From Candidatus Magasanikiibacteriota bacterium (lineage in GTDB: Bacteria > Patescibacteriota > Patescibacteriia > Magasanikbacterales > UBA922), in contig PBBY01000016.1 in NCBI GenBank assembly GCA_002716765.1, positions 47,322 to 111,321 on the forward strand: a stretch of DNA of 64,000 bases. The letters run 5' to 3'. Positions 21,637-64,000 of this stretch are shown piece by piece (position 1 is the first letter of the stretch; every line of letters begins with the position of its first letter). The position numbers and the translations under genes are program-made. The notes under the pieces were generated by a model. That model saw nothing but the letters and a program-made list of their open reading frames with translations, was not told the DNA's origin and did no database searches.

Positions 21637-22325
21637 ATGGAAGATTTACCACACAATTCTGGGTTTTTACTTATAGACAAACCAAAAGACTGGACGAGCC
21701 ACGATGTTGTGGGTTATTTACGAAAAATAACCGGGATAAAAAAAATAGGCCACGCTGGCACACTCGATCCATTTGCCACAGGCCTGCTTATTGTTGGTGT
21801 TGGAAGAAGTGCAACAAAGCAACTCGATGATTTTAAAGGGTTACCAAAAACATATAATGCAATAATTCATCTTGGTGCCACTTCGGACACACAAGATTCC
21901 ACCGGAATAATAACAGAACAATCTAAATACACAATTCCAACACTTTCTGACATACAAAAAACGCTTCCTTCTTTTATTGGTAAACAAACACAAATACCAC
22001 CAATGCATAGCGCAAAAAAGTTAATGGACAAAAACTATACACCTTAGCAAGAAAAGGAATAGAAATAGAAAGAACACCACACGAGATTACTATTTATAAC
22101 ATTACTCAAGAAGAATATACTTTTCCCACGCTTACCATTACCGTGCATTGCTCAACTGGTACATACATTAGAACACTTGCACATGATATTGGTCAAAAAT
22201 TAACAACCGGCGCGTATTGCAAAGAACTAAGAAGAGTAAATATTGGGAAACATGACGTAGAAAAAGCGCAAAAGCCAAAAGATATAACAAAGGAAAATTG
22301 GCAAAAGTATATATTTCATATATAA
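21637..22325 (+). CDS. truB: tRNA pseudouridine(55) synthase TruB, reading frame interrupted
   Basis: N-part LLIDKPKDWTSHDVVGYLRKITGIKKIGHAGTLDPFATGLL has the catalytic Asp motif. The TruB continuation KVNGQKLYTLARKGIEIER..CSTGTYIRTLAHDIG is in the +2 frame after an A6 run at 22014-22019; inserting one A restores a roughly 229-aa TruB lacking a PUA domain. Confidence 0.75.
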
Positions 22326-22390
22326 AAAAATCCCCCGTATCGAGTACATCATAATAAATGACATAAACGACACGGGAGACGAAGTTAAAA
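22321..22390 (-). terminator. Stem-loop A1: 7-bp stem (CTCCCGT/ACGGGGG), ~40-nt conserved loop, then U-tract on the minus strand, at the 3' end of the 78-aa membrane gene
   Basis: Read on the minus strand: ctcccGTgtcg…gatACgggggattttttta. It is a paralog of A2. Confidence 0.55.
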
Positions 22391-22397
22391 GCGGTGT

Positions 22398-22634
22398 TTA
22401 TAGCCGGAAAAATTTCCAGACTACGATGCCTAGAACAACCCACCATCCTACAAATAGGTAAGTGGTGTAAATTACCACATACTTAAGGATGATTGGTTTA
22501 AAAGATCGCACCTCTTTTTTAACCATGCGCAGCCCTGCGTATGACGCATTTGTCACACGTGGGACCGTGGTTGAAATAGAGTGAAACCAAACACTCACCA
22601 CAAAACAAACGACAAATAAAACAGTGAAGACCAT
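22398..22634 (-). CDS. Small multi-pass membrane protein (paralog of the C-terminal half of 22807-23334)
   Basis: 78 aa with two hydrophobic helices. Preceded by SD AAAGGAG-9nt-ATG and a TTGACA-N18-TATACT promoter. Its 3' end abuts stem-loop A1. Confidence 0.45.
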   Translation of the reverse strand: MVFTVLFVVCFVVSVWFHSISTTVPRVTNASYAGLRMVKKEVRSFKPIILKYVVIYTTYLFVGWWVVLGIVVWKFFRL

Positions 22635-22688
22635 TTCACTTTACTCCTTTTTTTAGATTTATGGCTATAGTATATAACAAAAAATTAA

Positions 22689-22749
22689 TTTTTGTCAAGT
22701 CTATTAACACATTTGTTTATTTTTTAGCTTATTTTAGTTTATTTTAAAA
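22689..22749 (-). promoter_or_regulatory. Repeat B1: 61-nt exact copy containing the -35 TTGACA and AT-rich upstream region for the 78-aa gene (-10 TATACT at 18-nt spacing)
   Basis: Identical to 23389-23449. The minus strand reads …aatagacTTGACAaaa. Confidence 0.55.
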
Positions 22750-22750
22750 G

Positions 22751-22815
22751 CAAAAATCCCCCACATCGAGTACATCATAACTGACATTAACTACGTGGGA
22801 GACAAGTTATAGGAT
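22751..22815 (-). terminator. Stem-loop A2: same element with compensatory stem changes (CTCCCAC/GTGGGGG), overlapping the 3' end of the 176-aa membrane gene
   Basis: About 85% identical to A1. The two dinucleotide differences in the stem (GT to AC and AC to GT) are mutually compensatory. A U-tract follows on the minus strand. Confidence 0.55.
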
Positions 22816-23334
22816 ATTTTTAACCATACCAACAAACGTAGAAATTGCCTTCGAGATACTCAAGACACCAACAGAAAGCTGATATACTAACCAGGCACTA
22901 TAACTGAGTAAAACAGTAACAAAACAGCCCCATTTTACTACGATAAACGTGGTAATAGCAGAAAGAACTCTTTTGTGGCCAGGAATGAAGAATACCATCA
23001 TTCCAACCACTTTATATGCTCCAATCCACAGAAAGAGGGTGCAGCATAGCCCAACACCTATCCAAGGTAGTGGTCGACTCAACAATGCGCTAAGACCTAA
23101 GGTGGAAGGCCCATCACCCCAAAGGAAAGCTGTGACAACTCCCACAACGAGCCCCACAAACCAACTTGGAGAGCGACGAGCTCTTTTTGCTGCCCTAACC
23201 ATGATTCGCTGAATGCGCCGCTCTGACATCCACCACGTGTTCCAGGTCCACCAAGACAACACTTCAAGACAGGCCCAGATACCAATAATTTCCAAGCAGA
23301 AGCCGCCAATACTGGTAAAAAGTGAAATGATCAA
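22807..23334 (-). CDS. Multi-pass membrane protein, Trp-rich (LSWWTWNTWW), GC-rich coding sequence
   Basis: Start taken at TTG 23334, downstream of TTGACA-N17-TATTAT and SD AAGGAG. The longer ORF beginning with GTG at 23379 would include the -10 box. Four to five predicted TM helices. The C-terminal ~70 aa resemble the 78-aa neighbour (…AISTFVGMVKN vs …ASYAGLRMVKK). Confidence 0.5.
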   Translation of the reverse strand: MIISLFTSIGGFCLEIIGIWACLEVLSWWTWNTWWMSERRIQRIMVRAAKRARRSPSWFVGLVVGVVTAFLWGDGPSTLGLSALLSRPLPWIGVGLCCTLFLWIGAYKVVGMMVFFIPGHKRVLSAITTFIVVKWGCFVTVLLSYSAWLVYQLSVGVLSISKAISTFVGMVKNIL

Positions 23335-23388
23335 AATAACTCCTTTTTTTTGTATATTTTTAACAAGACATAATACCACTTTTTTCTT

Positions 23389-23449
23389 TTTTTGTCAAGT
23401 CTATTAACACATTTGTTTATTTTTTAGCTTATTTTAGTTTATTTTAAAA
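23389..23449 (-). promoter_or_regulatory. Repeat B2: 61-nt exact copy containing the -35 TTGACA for the 176-aa gene (TTGACA-N17-TATTAT)
   Basis: Identical to B1. It lies immediately downstream (minus strand) of the uvrA terminator. Confidence 0.55.
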
Positions 23450-23454
23450 ATAAA

Positions 23455-23488
23455 AACCCTCTTTATACTGTAAAGAGGGGTTTTTTTA
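23455..23488 (-). terminator. Rho-independent terminator downstream of uvrA (ccctcttta-tactg-taaagaggg with T/A runs on both sides)
   Basis: Perfect 9-bp stem and 5-nt loop, flanked by A-run and T-run. It can work in both directions. Confidence 0.7.
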
Positions 23489-23500
23489 TGGTGTGTGTAT

Positions 23501-38945: not shown

Positions 38946-39374
38946 TTAAGAAAACAACCGTAGTTGTCCACCAGAAGTGTGTGTATCCAAACTATTAGCT
39001 GGTTTATAGAGTACGGTAGTCCCTCCCAATAACTTCCTAGTATGAGAGGTGCTTTGAACAAAAAAAGTAAAACCAGGAACTATTAGAGGCTTTGCGCGGC
39101 CGCGCACGCCATATGGAATTCCTGTTAGGTTTCGCACCTCGTCTCCAGAATACAGGAGTTTAGTTGCTTGTTCATAGGCGACCACCTCATTACTTTCTCG
39201 TAATATTACAGGCTTTGTGAATTCATACAATATACACCCAGCCCTAAAAGGTCTGGGAATTCCCTGTAAGAATGGCTTTACTTGTATATCTTCACACACG
39301 TCATAAAATTCGAATCTACCCTGCGGAACAATAGTGCACAAGGACGGGTCTAGCGAAACAGTTGAAATATTCAA
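38946..39374 (-). CDS. Hypothetical protein (GC-rich, contains a NotI site)
   Basis: 142-aa ORF with no recognisable motif. Followed on its strand by a hairpin plus T-run terminator at 38882-38909. Confidence 0.4.
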   Translation of the reverse strand: MNISTVSLDPSLCTIVPQGRFEFYDVCEDIQVKPFLQGIPRPFRAGCILYEFTKPVILRESNEVVAYEQATKLLYSGDEVRNLTGIPYGVRGRAKPLIVPGFTFFVQSTSHTRKLLGGTTVLYKPANSLDTHTSGGQLRLFS

Positions 39375-39495: not shown

Positions 39496-39528
39496 TACAA
39501 AAAAGCAACCTTCCTTCGAAAGTTGCAA
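39496..39528 (-). terminator. Terminator downstream of mtnP (gcaac-cttccttcgaaa-gttgc, A/T runs on both sides)
   Basis: Hairpin flanked by A-runs. On the minus strand: gcaactttcgaaggaaggttgcttttttgtatt. Confidence 0.5.
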
Positions 39529-39561
39529 AAAAGAACAAAAAGGGTCGTACTAAGCATTGCT

Positions 39562-40443
39562 TTACTGAGAAAAAATCCAAAATAGCTTTTGCATTAACCC
39601 CTCTGGAACATATCTGGAGTCAGTCATAACTGCCCCATTGCACGCTTCGAGAATGAACGAATCTTGTTCTAAGGGGAGATTACAAGCTGCCCCCACAACA
39701 ATACGGAGTGCGGTTGAAGATAGTTGCTGCATCACCCTAGCAACTTCATCGGCCGAAACCTCACCATGGCCTGTGTACCAACAATCATAATCAGTTACCA
39801 TTGCAAGTGTTGCATAAGGAATTCCTGCTTCACGAGCAAGCTTAGCCTCTGGCAAAGCTGTCATACCAATTACATCTGCACCAAAGAGACGGTGCATATT
39901 TGATTCCGCTTTTGTGGAAAATGCTGGACCCTCCATAGCGACATATGTTCCTCCACGTTGCACAGAAACCTCCAAACTATCTGCCGCCTCAAAAAGCACA
40001 TGTGCAAGCTTTGGTGAAACTGGAGTACCAAATGGTACGTGCCCAGCAACCCCATTACCAAAAAAGGTGCACTCTCGCTTGTACGTTTTGTCGATATACT
40101 GATCAACAATCACCACATTTCCCGGCTCAATCTCCTCTTTTAGTGAACCAACAGCAGAAACGGCAATACACCACTGTGCGCCAAGTTTTTTGAGCGCCCA
40201 AATATTTGCCCGATAATTTACTTCCGATGGCAAAATACGATGACCAACGCCATGGCGTGGTAAAAAAAGAATAGACACAGTAACACCTTCTTGCCGAAGC
40301 AATCCAGATACAATAGTATCACTTGTTTCACCATATGGCGTATGAACCACCAACTCCTCTACTTCTGTAAGATGTTCTTGTAAATCATATAATCCACTTC
40401 CGCCAATAACAGCGACAGTTGGAATGTGTTTTGGTATTTTCAT
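39562..40443 (-). CDS. mtnP: S-methyl-5'-thioadenosine / purine nucleoside phosphorylase (PNP/MTAP family)
   Basis: VAVIGGSGLYDL N-terminus and the GMTALPEAKLAREAGIPYATLAMVTDYDCW phosphorylase signature. SD AAAAAGGAG lies 7 nt upstream. Confidence 0.8.
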   Translation of the reverse strand: MKIPKHIPTVAVIGGSGLYDLQEHLTEVEELVVHTPYGETSDTIVSGLLRQEGVTVSILFLPRHGVGHRILPSEVNYRANIWALKKLGAQWCIAVSAVGSLKEEIEPGNVVIVDQYIDKTYKRECTFFGNGVAGHVPFGTPVSPKLAHVLFEAADSLEVSVQRGGTYVAMEGPAFSTKAESNMHRLFGADVIGMTALPEAKLAREAGIPYATLAMVTDYDCWYTGHGEVSADEVARVMQQLSSTALRIVVGAACNLPLEQDSFILEACNGAVMTDSRYVPEGLMQKLFWIFSQ

Positions 40444-40769
40444 TGGTCACTCCTTTTTTTGAAAAAAACCACGCACGCTTTGGCATTGTAACACACTACA
40501 CCTAGACACACAAATTGAGTATTAAAAAATGACCACAGAGCGGTCAGTAAGAAAGAACTGAAAGAAAAACCTACTACCCCTTAAGAGCTAAATAAAACGC
40601 AGTTAGATTAATACATGTTGAAATGAGCAGCAAAACAGCTATCATACCACAGCCTCCAAAGAGAAATTTGCCACTACTACTCACAGATTGTGGCAAAAAA
40701 ATAAAGAAAGGATGAGTAGTGTGCTAGATATATTTATATACGTTCACCACACTACCCACCAAACACATT

Positions 40770-40816
40770 TAATTTTCCAATTATTACTCTAGGACAAATA
40801 AGATAATTTGTCAAGT
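40770..40816 (-). promoter_or_regulatory. Candidate distal promoter for mtnP with the recurring aacTTGACAaatt -35 box
   Basis: The minus strand reads aacTTGACAaattatcttatttgtccTAGAGT. It would leave a ~360-nt leader before mtnP that contains an imperfect 12-bp inverted repeat (ccactactactca…tgagtagtgtg). Confidence 0.3.
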
Positions 40817-40947
40817 TTCTACGATAGAATTACTTAAAAAATTTTGTATAAACACCTAACAAAGTCTATATTTATTTTAAACACCTTCTTCATAAAGAGA
40901 AAACACAGGCTGGCACCTGTGTAAAGTAAGAAAAGAAAAAAATAATA

Positions 40948-41337
40948 CTATTTATCACCGTTTTTAAATGATAGAAAAAAGAACAAATTGTAAAATACAA
41001 AAAATACCAAAAGGATAAGCGGATACCCATTCGAATATATAATTGCACATACCGCGCCAAAAAGTAAGGGTATTGCCTTTTCATTTTGAGGAGCATGGCA
41101 CTCTAGGTTTCCTGCCATTAGAAGCATAATTGCAATAACAACATAATCTACAAACACAAAATCCTCCCAAATAAAGAGTAAAAGAAACAAAGAGTGCACG
41201 CAAAAATGCAATAAATACGACGCGCACATATAATATAATACCACACAACCATTGTATAACAAAAAAACCAGTGTAAAATTCCACACTGGTTTTTTTGTTG
41301 CGATTAGTATTGAAACCGCAGAAGTAAAAGAAGCCAA
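40948..41337 (-). CDS. Possible membrane protein
   Basis: 129-aa hydrophobic ORF. No SD and no motif. Low coding confidence in AT-rich DNA. Confidence 0.2.
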   Translation of the reverse strand: MASFTSAVSILIATKKPVWNFTLVFLLYNGCVVLYYMCASYLLHFCVHSLFLLLFIWEDFVFVDYVVIAIMLLMAGNLECHAPQNEKAIPLLFGAVCAIIYSNGYPLILLVFFVFYNLFFFLSFKNGDK

Positions 41338-41504
41338 ATTGCTATAAATAGCGTAACTGGTAAAATAAATAATAATACCACAATAAACCCTTCTTTTAGG
41401 ATTTTTGGGATAATAGTAAGTGATTTTTGTCGTATTTGCTTCATAAATAGTATTAGAAAAATACCTATTCCTTTTGTGTCTCTTTTCATCTCACGCTTTA
41501 ACAC
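41304..41504 (-). CDS. Possible small membrane protein
   Basis: 66-aa hydrophobic ORF in the AT-rich block. It overlaps the next ORF out of frame and could be one disrupted gene. Confidence 0.2.
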   Translation of the reverse strand: MLKREMKRDTKGIGIFLILFMKQIRQKSLTIIPKILKEGFIVVLLFILPVTLFIAIWLLLLLRFQY

Positions 41505-41860
41505 CTTGGTTTTACCACAATTTCATGTTTTTGTCAAGTGTTGAGCCAAAAATACGTACAATGACCCAAAAAAACAAAAACCCACCTGCCGGAGAGTATT
41601 CTGTATATTTTAAGTAAAATTATCTATATACCATACAACTATGATATAGAAATAACTTACTCCCACACATTATCTTGCAATCTAGTTGTTAGATATGCTT
41701 CTTGTAATGGTGAGAGGATTGGGTTAAGGAACGTAGGTTAGGGGTGTAGGTCTACCGGAAGGAGAGTCGTTGGGCGCTGGTGTTCTGATCTTCTTATCTT
41801 CTTAACTCAACCACCTTCACACCAATATCCGGGTCGATCCAAGATGGACAGGTATATACC

Positions 41861-41890
41861 TTTTTTCCTCCTTTTTTTGCCACACGACGA
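41861..41890 (-). repeat. 30-nt exact copy of the first 10 codons (plus the internal AAAGGAGG) of the glycosyltransferase gene at 1393-1422
   Basis: atataccttttttcctcctttttttgcca occurs at 1393-1422 and 41861-41890. On the minus strand it reads tggcaaaaaaaggaggaaaaaaggtatat, which translates to (M)AKKGGKKVY. Confidence 0.8.
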
Positions 41891-41917
41891 CGTCCTTTTT
41901 TCTTTTTGGGAGATTTC

Positions 41918-42109
41918 TTAGTAGGCGGCGACAAAGAAGATGAAAAGAAGGAAGATAACGATGACCCCAATGGCCACCAAAATAATTTGGTTGATATCCA
42001 CAATAGCCCTTTCGTTTGCTAAAATGGTGCTCTCTATCTTATTGATATGTTGCTGCAAGTAAAAGATAAAGAGAGAGTTTAAAATATATGAGCAGCATGT
42101 TATATACAC
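41918..42109 (-). CDS. Possible small tail-anchored hydrophobic protein
   Basis: 63-aa ORF (GTG start) with a C-terminal TM (IILVAIGVIVIFLLFIFFVAAY). It lies about 200 nt downstream of the perfect TTGACA-N17-TATAAT promoter at 42316-42344. Confidence 0.2.
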   Translation of the reverse strand: MYITCCSYILNSLFIFYLQQHINKIESTILANERAIVDINQIILVAIGVIVIFLLFIFFVAAY

Positions 42110-42315
42110 AACGTATATACACCATGCTACTCATACATCACTTCATTTTCCTTCCTTTCCTATTATTGTATTGATCAGTGTAAGACTTAATTACATGAAA
42201 CCCTTACACAAGAAACGAGTACTGATCTGGGCAAGTTTAGAAATAAGACCCTTCTAGTACTTGTCGCCTCTTGTGTAGTGACTTCTGTTTTTTCTTATAA
42301 TTCATTGTAACCATG

Positions 42316-42344
42316 CATTATATCATACTTTACTACTTTTGTCA
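42316..42344 (-). promoter_or_regulatory. Perfect consensus sigma70 promoter TTGACA-N17-TATAAT on the minus strand
   Basis: The minus strand reads acacTTGACAaaagtagtaaagtatgaTATAATgcatgg. It points into the 2-kb low-coding region. Confidence 0.55.
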
Positions 42345-42504
42345 AGTGTTTTATGTGCTTTTTTGCTATATTTTTCCTAATATCCTTTTTTTAGGCTAAT
42401 TTTAGCCAATTTTTCCTGTTATTTCCCTCTATATATCCCCTATTTTTTACCATTTTTTTCTTAATATAATACTTTTATTATTTTTTTTCTTTACAAATTT
42501 ACTC

Positions 42505-42533
42505 TTTACAGGTTGCTGAAAACATGCTACAAT
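42505..42533 (+). promoter_or_regulatory. Promoter TTTACA-N17-TACAAT for the Cys-rich gene (divergent from the 42316-42344 promoter)
   Basis: tcTTTACAggttgctgaaaacatgcTACAATctag, about 30 nt upstream of SD+ATG at 42566. Confidence 0.5.
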
Positions 42534-42565
42534 CTAGCCGACCACTTACACAAAAAGGAGAAAAC

Positions 42566-42898
42566 ATGAAAGTGGACTGCCAATTTCCAAAAATAACATT
42601 ACCAAATTGCCCTACCCTGGTGGCTCGACTTCGTGCAAAACTTGCTGAGTATGAAGGACGTAATCCGTATACCTCACCCGAGTGCGATCAAGATAACTTC
42701 TTTAAGAAGGAAATCTTGAAAAGACTTATTGAGGCTGGACAAGTTACTCAAGAATGGTGTGAAAGCAGGTTCAGCGACCTCCCAAGAGATATTTATCACA
42801 CATATTATCTTGCAAATGCATTATGTGTAATAAACGCCTACTGTCTGCTAGATTTTGTAAGTATAAAAGACGGTACTGGACTTCCAAGCCCCGCTTAA
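42566..42898 (+). CDS. Hypothetical Cys-rich protein
   Basis: Start MKVDCQ with SD AAAGGAG 6 nt upstream. A TTTACA-N17-TACAAT promoter lies at 42505-42533 and a hairpin plus T-run terminator at 42939-42970. The protein has 7 Cys and no recognisable motif. Confidence 0.45.
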   Translation: MKVDCQFPKITLPNCPTLVARLRAKLAEYEGRNPYTSPECDQDNFFKKEILKRLIEAGQVTQEWCESRFSDLPRDIYHTYYLANALCVINAYCLLDFVSIKDGTGLPSPA

Positions 42899-42938
42899 AA
42901 ATATGGAAGCACACCTCTTTTCATTGTTCTTTTTTTTT

Positions 42939-42970
42939 GCGACCTCCGAAGGAAGGTTGTTTTTATTTTC
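42939..42970 (+). terminator. Terminator of the Cys-rich gene (gcgacctcc-gaa-ggaaggttg plus T-run)
   Basis: 8-bp stem with one bulge, followed by tttttatttt. Confidence 0.5.
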
Positions 42971-62095: not shown

Positions 62096-62146
62096 TAAAT
62101 AACCTAAACGTCTAACAAGTTCATATTCACGAAAGACTAGTACTAT

Positions 62147-62182
62147 AAAAAAACACCCGCCTCAAGCGGATGTTTTTGTTTG
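62147..62182. terminator. Bidirectional terminator between the ATPase gene and the SWIB gene (aaaaaaacacccgcctcaagcggatgtttttg)
   Basis: GC stem ccgc/gcgg with a flanking A-run and T-run, between convergent genes. Confidence 0.55.
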
Positions 62183-62183
62183 A

Positions 62184-62450
62184 CTATGCGTCTGGATTTG
62201 TAAGATGTCCTGAAACAAGTTTTGTCATTTCGAACATATTTACTTCGTCTTTTCCAAATATTGGTCGAAGGTTGTCATCTGCAAATATGTTTCTTTTGTT
62301 TTCTGGGTTTTGCAAGTTATTTTTCTTGATATACTCCCACATTTTTTTTACAACTTCTGTTCTTGGTAGCGGTCCTTTTCCTACCACTGCTTCTAGTTCA
62401 GCAGAAAGGTTTAATGGTCTTGCCAAAGCGGGATTGAGTTTTCTTGCCAT
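62184..62450 (-). CDS. SWIB/MDM2-domain protein
   Basis: 88 aa. LSAELEAVVG…RTEVVKKMWEYIKKNNLQNPENKRNIFADDNLRPIFGKDEVNMFEMTKLVSGHL matches the SWIB domain consensus. Confidence 0.7.
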   Translation of the reverse strand: MARKLNPALARPLNLSAELEAVVGKGPLPRTEVVKKMWEYIKKNNLQNPENKRNIFADDNLRPIFGKDEVNMFEMTKLVSGHLTNPDA

Positions 62451-62610
62451 ACATTTTTATATTTAAAAATAAAATGAATTAATAGTAATTTTATATCCAA
62501 GAGTATAGCATATTACCATATATTGCGCAAGTCGGTGTGCATACACACTCATTTACCTAAATACAAATATACTATATACTACGGATAAATTAACATATCT
62601 ATCAATCCGT

Positions 62611-64000
62611 ATGGCATTATACCACAAGCACAGACCACAGTCATTTTCTTCTATTATCGGACAAGACCATATTATTCAAACGATTACAAACCAGATTATT
62701 ACGCAGGCTACAGCCCATGCCTATCTTTTCTCTGGTCCAAGAGGTGTAGGAAAAACAACCACTGCCAGATTACTCGCAAAAGCCATAAATTGTCCTAGAA
62801 TTGCACCCGACAGTGCAGAGCCGGACAACGAATCCCCAGAGGCAAAAGAAATCACACAAGGTCGCTCAATAGATGTGATAGAAATAGATGCCGCGAGTCA
62901 CACTGGCGTAGACAATGTTCGAGAAAATATTATTGAAAATGCACAATTTAAACCAACAACACTAGCATATAAAGTCTTTATTATAGACGAAGTACACATG
63001 CTTTCTACAAGTGCGTTTAATGCACTACTTAAAACACTCGAAGAACCACCAAGTCATATTGTGTTTATTCTTGCCACAACAGAATTACACAAAATTCCAG
63101 ATACGATTATTTCTCGTTGTCAGCGATTTTCTTTTTCTCATATATCGCAAGATGCTATGAAAAAATATCTTAAATCTGTTGCAAAAGAAGAAGGTATTAC
63201 CATTGATGAAACCGTATTAGGTCATATTATTGCAAAAAGTGATGGCTGTGTAAGAGATGCAATAAATACCCTTGAGCAGGCCATGGCTACCGGCGAAAAA
63301 CATATTACCGCTGAATCCACATCTTTTCTGTTACCAGAATCCACATCATCCCAATCAGCGGAATTTATTTCTGCAATCAGTGAAAACAGCATACAAAACG
63401 CACTTACCATATTACAAAACATATATTCTTCTGGAATAAACCTTACACACTTTACTGATGAAGTTATTAGACAATTACGCAACGTCCTTATTTCTCATTT
63501 AGGAAAAACAGGGAATACAGGAGCCATCACACAAAATAACAACCAGGATTTTACCACACTCTTGCAAAAAAATAGCATGGAAATTATTGGCATAATAGAT
63601 ATACTTATAAAAAGAAAAAACCAAATAAAAGCAAGTCCCCTGCCACAACTCCCACTGGAAATTGCCGTATTTGAGATATGTGCAAACAACACACAAGCTA
63701 CCAAAGAAAGTGCTTCTTTCACCCCAACCCAAACTAAAAAAGAAGCTAAAAGAAAAGAAACCCTAAAACCTGTCCAAGAAAGTACTGTGGATGAGCACGA
63801 GAAATCAGAAGAAATACACCATGAACATACTACTAAATCTACTAACACTGAAATAATATCCCATGATGAGGTGTTAAAAAAATGGCAATCTGTAATTGAG
63901 AGTCTCACATCACTCTCCCCTTCACTTGTTTCCTTATTACGAACTGCCGAGCTTATTAAGACCGAACAAAATGTTATTACAATTTCTGTTGAATTCCCAT
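62611..64000 (+). CDS. dnaX: DNA polymerase III subunit gamma/tau (5' part; runs off the window)
   Basis: MALYHKHRPQSFSSIIGQDHI…AHAYLFSGPRGVGKTTTARLLAKAINC, IDAASHTGVDNVR, FIIDEVHML and SRCQRFSF clamp-loader motifs. This + strand ORF is not in the supplied track because no stop falls inside the window. Confidence 0.9.
   Translation, partial: MALYHKHRPQSFSSIIGQDHIIQTITNQIITQATAHAYLFSGPRGVGKTTTARLLAKAINCPRIAPDSAEPDNESPEAKEITQGRSIDVIEIDAASHTGVDNVRENIIENAQFKPTTLAYKVFIIDEVHMLSTSAFNALLKTLEEPPSHIVFILATTELHKIPDTIISRCQRFSFSHISQDAMKKYLKSVAKEEGITIDETVLGHIIAKSDGCVRDAINTLEQAMATGEKHITAESTSFLLPESTSSQSAEFISAISENSIQNALTILQNIYSSGINLTHFTDEVIRQLRNVLISHLGKTGNTGAITQNNNQDFTTLLQKNSMEIIGIIDILIKRKNQIKASPLPQLPLEIAVFEICANNTQATKESASFTPTQTKKEAKRKETLKPVQESTVDEHEKSEEIHHEHTTKSTNTEIISHDEVLKKWQSVIESLTSLSPSLVSLLRTAELIKTEQNVITISVEFP

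Follow-up and report, generated by a model that had tools for sequence, protein, structure and literature searches.

We analysed the 2-kb block that lies between mtnP and a gene for a Cys-rich protein in contig PBBY01000016.1 of a Candidatus Magasanikiibacteriota bacterium; the stretch of 64,000 nucleotides in which it lies is called the window below, and all positions are those of the window. The explanation that we favour, and consider probable although well short of certain, is that the block consists of overlooked, independent small membrane-protein units (B, C and D) and a hairpin RNA, set beside a variable junction. The block is not a broken gene, not a demonstrated toxin system and not an assembly error. 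The evidence consists of conservation in relatives, the coding signatures of units C and D, the anatomy of promoters and terminators, structural variation and signals of recombination, and from it we infer transcription, translation, membrane location and any function.

An earlier reading of the same DNA, made from its letters and its open reading frames (ORFs) and called here the sequence-only reading, had seen a decayed or novel accessory locus. The locus does look accessory, with small hydrophobic ORFs, a probable RNA element and an unstable upstream part, but no decayed gene runs across units B and C. The 23-aa ORF of unit D, three intrinsic terminators, the terminator that separates B from C and two hairpins (42196-42290 and 42084-42138) had escaped that reading.

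Extent and conservation of the block

The block (40444-42523) is the largest gap between ORFs of at least 100 aa in the window (2080 nt, against 1399 nt for the runner-up), which bears out its description as a low-coding region of 2 kb. It had also been called AT-rich with GC-rich flanks. The direction is right, but with a GC content of 0.336 against 0.366 for the window the AT-richness is modest, and the contrast arises mainly because the flanks, mostly mtnP (0.442) and to a lesser degree the Cys-rich gene (0.408), are rich in GC.

We compared the block with eight related contigs (L088, L090 to L094, L096 and L097), several of which cover only parts of it; these make up a single clade, about 88% identical to the window, in which L088 and L097 stand slightly apart. 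The frames of B, C and D are unbroken in every related contig that spans them. Conservation extends to the -35 box of every promoter, to start codons and terminator stems and, for C and D, to the ribosome-binding sites; two stems of terminators or untranslated regions (UTRs) show compensatory changes.

The source population is marine, and the window sequence is also present in several TARA Oceans assemblies. Four independent TARA short-read assemblies all end within 40512-40540, and two TARA scaffolds share an overlap of 18 nt only. The contig L088, which comes from another sample, crosses this break point with the gene order of the window intact: RNase H, a hypothetical gene, mtnP, the block and the Cys-rich gene. 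The join of mtnP and the block is thus genuine and the assembly chimera envisaged by the sequence-only reading is excluded; in this relative, which bears on a question raised there, mtnP is followed by the block and then the Cys-rich gene. Relatives show an indel polymorphism just upstream of the unit D terminator, coinciding with the assembly break point, and in most of them the 3' end of unit C recurs there as a 45-nt duplicate, which plausibly accounts for the failure of the short-read assemblies.

Coding signatures of units C and D

Comparison of the window with L088 showed a ratio of nonsynonymous to synonymous divergence (dN/dS) of about 0.3 for unit C, and the proposed frame alone was stop-free and carried a synonymous excess (p = 0.009-0.04). 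An exhaustive HMMER search with unit C among 1.84 billion representatives returned unit C itself and one remote homologue, P0131 (35% identity, E = 1e-6), which is of the same size, has a GGAGG site and shares the motifs DY-VIA, NxE and Y-NG and a K-x-x-D tail; its genomic context is different, downstream of uvrC in another organism. The frame-specific synonymous excess and the P0131 homologue together argue that unit C is a real small membrane-protein gene, lying within the 129-aa ORF at 40948-41337. NCBI annotates it at that length (MBH41699.1), and it is called as 69 aa in L088, L092, L093, L094, L096 and TARA.

Unit D, which is in no annotation, is 24 aa long in relatives, where its ribosome-binding site and ATG are kept. 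The 11 synonymous and 8 nonsynonymous changes between the window and L088 gave a synonymous excess in the proposed frame, again the only stop-free one (p = 0.0005-0.002). RNAalifold retained two elements with one compensatory pair apiece, a hairpin in the structured 5' UTR (about 134 nt long) and the terminator, and in the consensus fold the ribosome-binding site pairs with ORF sequence. The synonymous divergence of unit D is three to four times that of the neighbouring genes, and the spacer between C and D is 77% identical. The products of B, C and D are all hydrophobic, with a grand average of hydropathy (GRAVY) of 1.1-1.8.

Promoters

The three TTGACAAA boxes that the sequence-only reading had placed on the minus strand at about 40811, 41526 and 42339 were found as stated (40807-40814, 41530-41537 and 42338-42345). 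The 8-mer itself is not enriched in the window (6 found against 8.0 expected), and the enrichment holds for the extended 10-mer ACTTGACAAA, which has five copies, all on the minus strand, against 0.44 expected, a number reached by none of 100 shuffles. Its two remaining copies lie in a duplicated cassette at 22.7 and 23.4 kb, where they precede genes for membrane proteins of 78 aa and about 170-190 aa, and every copy has a -10 element 17-18 nt downstream. These positions suggest that the ACTTGACAAA box acts as this genome's strong promoter for small membrane-protein genes. No common upstream motif was found beyond the box in the six TTGACAAA promoters.

Promoter A (42345-42317) is the sole 12/12 match to TTGACA-N17-TATAAT in the window, where matches with at most one mismatch number 5 against 0.99 expected. 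As had been proposed, this perfect promoter is divergent from a second good promoter, that of the Cys-rich gene on the + strand. The features of the block are collected in Table 1.

Table 1. Features of the block and its neighbours, from the Cys-rich gene to mtnP (dS and dN, synonymous and nonsynonymous divergence, are Nei-Gojobori estimates for the window against L088; pS, proportion of synonymous differences)
Feature	Position	Strand	dS	dN	Remarks
Cys-rich gene	42524-42898	+	0.42	0.12	dN/dS about 0.29
Promoter of Cys-rich gene, TTTACA-N17-TACAAT	42505-42533	+			kept in L088
Promoter A, TTGACA-N17-TATAAT, ACTTGACAAA box	42317-42345	-			hexamers and 17-nt spacing kept in L088 and L097; small spacer differences
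Hairpin 1, long imperfect stem downstream of promoter A	42196-42290	-			about 95% conserved
Hairpin 2, near-perfect 22-bp stem, then AUAUUUU	42084-42138	-			z = -7.6; sub-threshold microRNA-like Rfam matches only
63-aa ORF, C-terminal hydrophobic helix	41918-42109	-			GTG inside stem of hairpin 2; no ribosome-binding site
Exact copy of glycosyltransferase 5' end (1393-1421)	41854-41882				29 nt, 100%; similarity ends at both edges
Strain-specific segment	about 41739-42195				absent from L088 and L097; L091 diverges into another gene; L090 starts here
115-nt piece	41624-41738	-			98-100% with L090, L091, L094 and L096; deleted in L088 and L097
Weak hairpin with UUUUUGUUUUUUU, T-tract	41568-41597	-			in all relatives; G-U in window is G-C in relatives; z = -1.3
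Promoter B, TTGACA-N17-TAAAAC, TG extension, ACTTGACAAA box	41509-41537	-			identical in 7 of 7 aligned sequences
Unit B, 61-aa hydrophobic protein (MKRDTKG...LLLRFQY)	41304-41489	-			ATG at 41489; NCBI MBH41700.1
Bidirectional intrinsic terminator at B/C boundary (A-run, 8-bp stem, T-run)	41258-41293				conserved; one loop change
Promoter C, TTGTTA-N16-TATTAT, TG extension	41235-41262	-			identical in relatives
Unit C, 69-aa membrane protein, 2-3 hydrophobic helices	40948-41157	-	0.22	0.075	GTG start 5 nt after GGGAGG (41162-41167)
Unit C terminator	40903-40922	-			stem kept, loop variable in relatives
Promoter D, TTGACA-N17-TAGAGT, ACTTGACAAA box	40786-40814	-			-35 and spacer kept; -10 is TACAGT in relatives
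Unit D, 23-aa hydrophobic peptide MIAVLLLISTCINLTAFYLALKG, one helix	40574-40645	-	1.3 (pS 0.62)	0.18	ATG at 40645; GGAGG 7 nt upstream
Unit D terminator	40530-40546	-			compensatory A-U to G-C change
mtnP own promoter, TTGTGT-N17-TACAAT, TG extension	40485-40513	-			read from sequence; conserved
mtnP	39562-40443		0.335	0.041	
RNase H			0.40	0.008	

Unit B and the near-invariant segment around it

The ORFs of 66 aa (41304-41504), 129 aa (40948-41337) and 63 aa (41918-42109) listed by the sequence-only reading are all present, and the first two, which it had taken for overlapping parts of one disrupted membrane-protein gene, are unit B and an over-extended unit C. That proposal fails, since a terminator (41258-41293), a promoter and the GGGAGG site lie between the two in all relatives; gene callers and NCBI annotate B and C as separate genes. 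The ORF of unit B is whole in all relatives, three pipelines call it at 61 or 66 aa, and its hydrophobic stretch takes up residues 26-61. Because variation in unit B is too low to test, its coding status is judged from the integrity of the ORF and the annotation, which lead us to put it at roughly two chances in three that unit B is protein-coding.

Comparison of the window with its relatives showed that the stretch 41733-41140 is 97-99% identical, across ORF, terminator loop, spacer and promoter alike, whereas the adjoining segment differs at 15-17% of sites. Between 41555 and 41140, 6-12 of 416 sites separate the window from relatives; in the segment that follows, the count is 105-118 of 696. 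Relatives whose sequences agree fully over the following 718-763 nt differ from one another at 5-9 of 417 sites in the low-divergence segment, and all four allele combinations occur at sites 41541 and 41477. The stretch beyond the junction (42217-42575) is conserved too, at about 95%, with identity falling off deeper in the Cys-rich gene. The simplest reading of these alignments would be repeated homologous exchange among lineages around unit B. RNA structure offers no explanation for the invariance, the ORF region folding no better than shuffles. The low-divergence segment of B, set against the fast unit D and the C-D spacer, makes the block a mosaic of unusually conserved and unusually diverged segments.

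A candidate hairpin RNA behind promoter A

Hairpin 1 folds with z = -3.8 in the window and z = -5.2 in L088, where the stem reaches about 26 bp. In L088, which is of the short type at the junction described below, the whole predicted transcript of 179 nt including its T-tract gave z = -7.4, and the hairpin 1 transcript has no ORF. We regard it as a candidate small RNA (sRNA), identified from its sequence and fold. The weak hairpin with its T-tract at 41568-41597 probably terminates transcripts that come from upstream, although its folding energy by itself is not significant. In the window the variable segment parts the hairpin RNA from this original terminator, and transcription may end instead at hairpin 2 with its AUAUUUU, which is confined to this lineage and could serve as a substitute terminator. 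Pairing of the hairpin RNA with the leader of the Cys-rich mRNA was considered and rejected: the match of 9 nt (z = -2.9) is not kept in L088 by inspection and is put down to chance.

The variable junction

The strain-specific segment holds the 63-aa ORF, the GC-rich piece, the 29-nt glycosyltransferase copy and hairpin 2. L088 and L097 fuse 42196 directly to 41623, and L091 has an unrelated 178-aa gene at the junction, which thus exists in three non-homologous states among the lineages. The 115-nt piece is common to both deep lineages, and for this reason the best account of the short form in L088 and L097 is that sequence was deleted between TTTCA repeats, the microhomology found at their deletion junction.

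Several features named by the sequence-only reading fall within this segment and share its limited distribution. The 63-aa ORF with its C-terminal helix exists, but it is strain-specific, lacks a ribosome-binding site and starts in a hairpin stem. It is kept in no relative, is missing from a collection of 15 billion proteins and, from its sequence context, is probably not a gene. The copy of the 5' end of the glycosyltransferase gene, reported as 30 nt, is present as 29 nt and confined to the segment. The GC-rich stretch of about 130 nt is present too (41700-41860, GC 0.478), but within a segment that relatives lack. The idea of a lost or replaced accessory gene fits the 0.46-kb segment, where L091 has an intact unrelated gene, but not the rest of the block.

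Two origins for parts of the segment were rejected. On both strands the fold of the GC-rich piece is matched by shuffles (z = -0.06 and +1.4), which speaks against a signal recognition particle RNA or another structured RNA. A remnant of the L091 gene or of a glycosyltransferase paralogue found no support in blastn and tblastx, which gave no similarity beyond the 29 nt, and the C-terminus is unrelated.

The contig L096, otherwise identical to the L091 type, has about 60 nt more in common with L091 beyond 41738. In L096:1-407 it turns abruptly to sequence of 62% GC at a CACAGAG/CTCTGTG inverted repeat; on reading, this part looks like a gene fragment of another organism, and the contig is probably chimeric.

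Proposed organisation and points against it

If the favoured explanation of separate small units holds, B, C and D would each be expressed from a sigma-70-type promoter of their own, with TTGACA at -35 and a TG-extended -10, and each be stopped by its own intrinsic terminator; the products would most likely be inserted in the cell membrane as small accessory or regulatory subunits. The fourth unit, the perfect promoter with the hairpin of about 26 bp, would give a small non-coding RNA ending at 41568-41597 in short-type relatives. The 0.46-kb segment, which has no conserved gene, would be the product of insertion, deletion or replacement at a junction in the population, and homologous recombination would keep the flanks of the junction near-identical between diverged lineages.

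Several observations weigh against this organisation. The promoters and terminators are predicted, as matches to consensus only. Hairpin 1 shows no compensatory change and has two mismatches in the window copy. The ribosome-binding site of unit B is weak and its predicted leader measures about 13 nt; it has no fixed synonymous difference in 43 sites, where about 13 would be expected, and nucleotide-level constraint, and not recombination, could be part of the reason why 41733-41140 diverges so little. The comparative depth is about two lineages with sub-variants, and each compensatory or synonymous change counts as one event. Lastly, no product of the block matched a family in Pfam, NCBIfam, PADLOC or PHROGs, and the same searches gave no credible match for the small ORFs, the Cys-rich protein, the L091 gene or the 51-aa ORF of relatives (see below).

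Alternative explanations

A wider reading, which we hold to be possible but unlikely, is that recombination drives the gain, loss, duplication and swapping of small-protein cassettes between co-occurring lineages, the block being one such site. Each cassette would be a self-contained module that combines a promoter of the ACTTGACAAA type with a terminator and a small protein, either secreted or in the membrane. The 51-aa cassette of the relatives, the module duplication at 22-23 kb and the junction's three contents are cited for it, as are the mRNA of unit D, which resembles type I toxin mRNAs, as well as the evolution of this unit faster than the neutral background. If true, cassette turnover would give strain-specific surface or toxin-like peptides in an episymbiotic bacterium of the candidate phyla radiation (CPR).

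It seems rather improbable that the block resembles a type I toxin-antitoxin locus, in which unit D, perhaps also unit B, would be a membrane-damaging peptide whose translation is blocked by the fold of its mRNA and by an RNA that is antisense or encoded close by, for example the one that starts at promoter A. The criteria of Fozo et al. 2010 (PMC2887945) are a toxin of less than 70 aa with a hydrophobic helix and a polar or aromatic C-terminus, isolation, and structured RNAs. Units B and D match them in being shorter than 70 aa, with one hydrophobic helix and with promoters of their own far from the flanking genes; hydrophobic stretches of 15 residues or more occur in each of B, D and the 63-aa ORF. 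The C-termini of B and D are charged or aromatic over 2-4 residues only (RFQY in B; KG in D, RTY or KAY in its relatives). The structured 5' UTR of unit D with its paired ribosome-binding site, a promoter-like site antisense to D (40618-40645, + strand) and the highly structured hairpin RNA in the same block would also fit. However, there is no + strand terminator to define an antisense RNA to D, the units are neither paralogues nor tandem repeats, their similarity being limited to the promoter box, and the duplex energy of the hairpin RNA and the 5' region of each unit (B, C and D) was no better than that of shuffles (z = -0.7 to -1.4). Moreover, small hydrophobic proteins with type-I-like features are mostly not toxins. 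The sequence-only reading had suggested a mobile-element remnant or a small-protein toxin system and a search of the small ORFs against toxin and bacteriocin families; no toxin, bacteriocin, defence, phage or mobile-element family and no PADLOC model was matched.

We judge it quite improbable that the locus is one of non-coding regulatory RNAs, in which the small ORFs, at least that of B, would be untranslated and the conserved DNA would encode RNAs. Such a locus would account for the near-identity of 41733-41140 while the genes of the lineages differ by 10-17%, for the lack of a fixed synonymous change in B, and for the fold of the B transcript, which with its terminator gave z = -4.7 and pairs its 5' and 3' ends. 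Without the terminator, however, neither strand of the B region shows unusual structure (z = -1.2 and -0.2), and the diversity within the clade is higher in the B segment than in its flanks, which together with the four allele combinations at two sites argues for recombination and not for constraint. The coding signatures of C and D are clear, and Rfam gave zero matches at the gathering score in the whole window; at an E-value threshold the block and L088 gave sub-threshold hairpin and terminator matches only.

Little credence can be given to the variable segment of 0.46-0.57 kb being a miniature inverted-repeat transposable element (MITE) or an IS200/IS605-derived palindrome-associated element beside hairpin 1. 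Its presence or absence between close lineages, its sharp edges, the strong sub-terminal hairpin 2 and a weak AT-rich hairpin near the other end would agree with such an element, and the 572 nt by which the window differs from L088 and L097 are bordered on each side by TTTCA(Y), an arrangement that fits a deletion equally well. Against it, the window holds no second copy except the 29-nt glycosyltransferase piece, the block has no terminal inverted repeats and no transposase, and a scan of viral contigs with a 23-mer from the segment gave no match. At one end, 115 nt are common to deeply diverged lineages with another interior, which favours a deletion in L088 and L097 over an insertion.

That the whole block is a single recently pseudogenised membrane-protein gene or an assembly chimera is highly improbable: the ORFs of 66 aa and 129 aa, both hydrophobic, do overlap, and every TARA short-read assembly breaks off near unit D with an 18-nt contig overlap, but seven related sequences keep B and C apart with a terminator and a promoter between them, no relative has a long ORF spanning them of the kind the sequence-only reading had allowed for, and L088 crosses the break point, which the indel polymorphism explains.

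Neighbouring genes and other small-protein cassettes

The gene mtnP looks horizontally acquired. Its GC content exceeds that of the window, and beyond the 8 sequences of its own 90% cluster the closest proteins reach no more than 60% identity; the few of them that bear a taxonomic name belong to Rickettsiales, Deltaproteobacteria, Chloroflexota and others with none from the CPR, and its GTDB matches are mostly Acidobacteriota; a scan of GTDB genomes with mtnP gave no close genome for synteny, the best matches being 47-54% identical and from other phyla. The Cys-rich protein is an orphan, with itself and one relative of 79% identity (on L088) found among 5.8 billion proteins. An inverted repeat of 41 nt (83%; 39501-39541 and 42924-42964), formed by the terminators of mtnP and the Cys-rich gene, brackets a 3.46-kb segment with mtnP, the small genes and the Cys-rich orphan; its core CGAAGGAAGGTTG has two copies only in the window. 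The segment may have been acquired as a small island; alternatively, the repeat may be no more than duplicated terminator modules. The repeat was rejected as transposon ends, as its copies are the two terminators, the only ones in the window, and no target duplication was seen.

Relatives have an extra cassette of about 370 nt at 39498/39499 (L088:1133-1500), absent from the window, with an AT-rich upstream region, GTTGACAAAA-N17-TATTAT, a ribosome-binding site, an ORF of 51 aa with an N-terminal hydrophobic anchor, and a terminator. At 22300-23500, after uvrA, tandem genes for small membrane proteins of 78 aa and about 170-190 aa have near-identical duplicated promoter modules (71 nt, 96%) and terminator modules (29 nt, 93%). 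The 142-aa hypothetical protein beside mtnP (38946-39374) matches phrog_26613 (E = 1.3e-9) and is the least conserved gene in the aligned region. The runner-up among the gaps between ORFs (62096-63494) contains an 88-aa ORF (62184-62450, minus strand) and about 1 kb carrying short ORFs only.

Other searches were negative. No tRNA or tmRNA was found. A 21-mer of unit B had no match in viral contigs. A replication origin was rejected, the block having one near-match to a DnaA box (24 in the window against 23 expected) and the cumulative skew being monotonic. A JGI metagenome scan with a concatenate of B, C and the Cys-rich protein returned the TARA contig itself only, two of its six patterns falling on artificial junctions. 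A concatenated query of the small ORFs found no match among 5.8 billion proteins, an uninformative result, unit B itself being in the collection.

Significance and comparison with known systems

The 2 kb of a reduced CPR genome that appeared empty would be packed with small, separately regulated genes. Standard annotation omits the 23-aa peptide, mis-sizes the 69-aa protein as 129 aa and overlooks the candidate sRNA. Membrane proteins of this small size may have a part in the surface biology of cells that live attached to hosts, and the adjacent micro-hotspot offers a population-level example of turnover of intergenic content. The finding is ordinary in kind, unannotated small genes and a small structural hotspot, and of local interest for CPR genomics; current understanding is not overturned, and the value lies in a corrected annotation and testable candidates, three peptides and one RNA.

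With type I toxin-antitoxin loci such as Ibs/Sib, Ldr/Rdl, TisB/IstR-1 and Zor/Orz (PMC2887945) the block shares a short hydrophobic peptide, a structured 5' UTR, an isolated position and an RNA nearby. It differs from them in having no definable antisense RNA, no tandem paralogues and no toxin homology, and membership is not claimed.

The junction resembles replacement islands and hypervariable junctions in its non-homologous alternative contents at one site, at which metagenome contigs end, and in flanks with low divergence between lineages, excess diversity within the clade and four allele combinations at two sites. Unlike those islands it has a scale of 0-0.7 kb and a cargo without a convincing gene, and no integrase, tRNA or repeat-defined attachment site was found. 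The hairpin RNA is like intrinsically terminated sRNAs with a sigma-70 promoter in its perfect -35 and -10 elements, its structured short-type transcript of about 175 nt, its U-tract end and its lack of an ORF; unlike the known ones it has no Rfam family or covariation and is parted from its terminator in this genome.

In E. coli, small membrane proteins were reportedly found by Hemm et al. in 2008 through searches of intergenic regions for ribosome-binding sites and conservation. Units B, C and D differ from that class in belonging to no described family and in having an uncultured CPR bacterium as host; B, D and the Cys-rich neighbour occur in two lineages only, and C has in addition one remote homologue. 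They are like the E. coli proteins in their length (16-70 aa), in their one or two hydrophobic helices, in having a promoter, ribosome-binding site and terminator of their own, and in being overlooked or mis-called by gene finders and recognised by conservation of frame and ribosome-binding site. Judged by these likenesses, small membrane proteins hidden in intergenic regions would be the closest functional analogy to the block.

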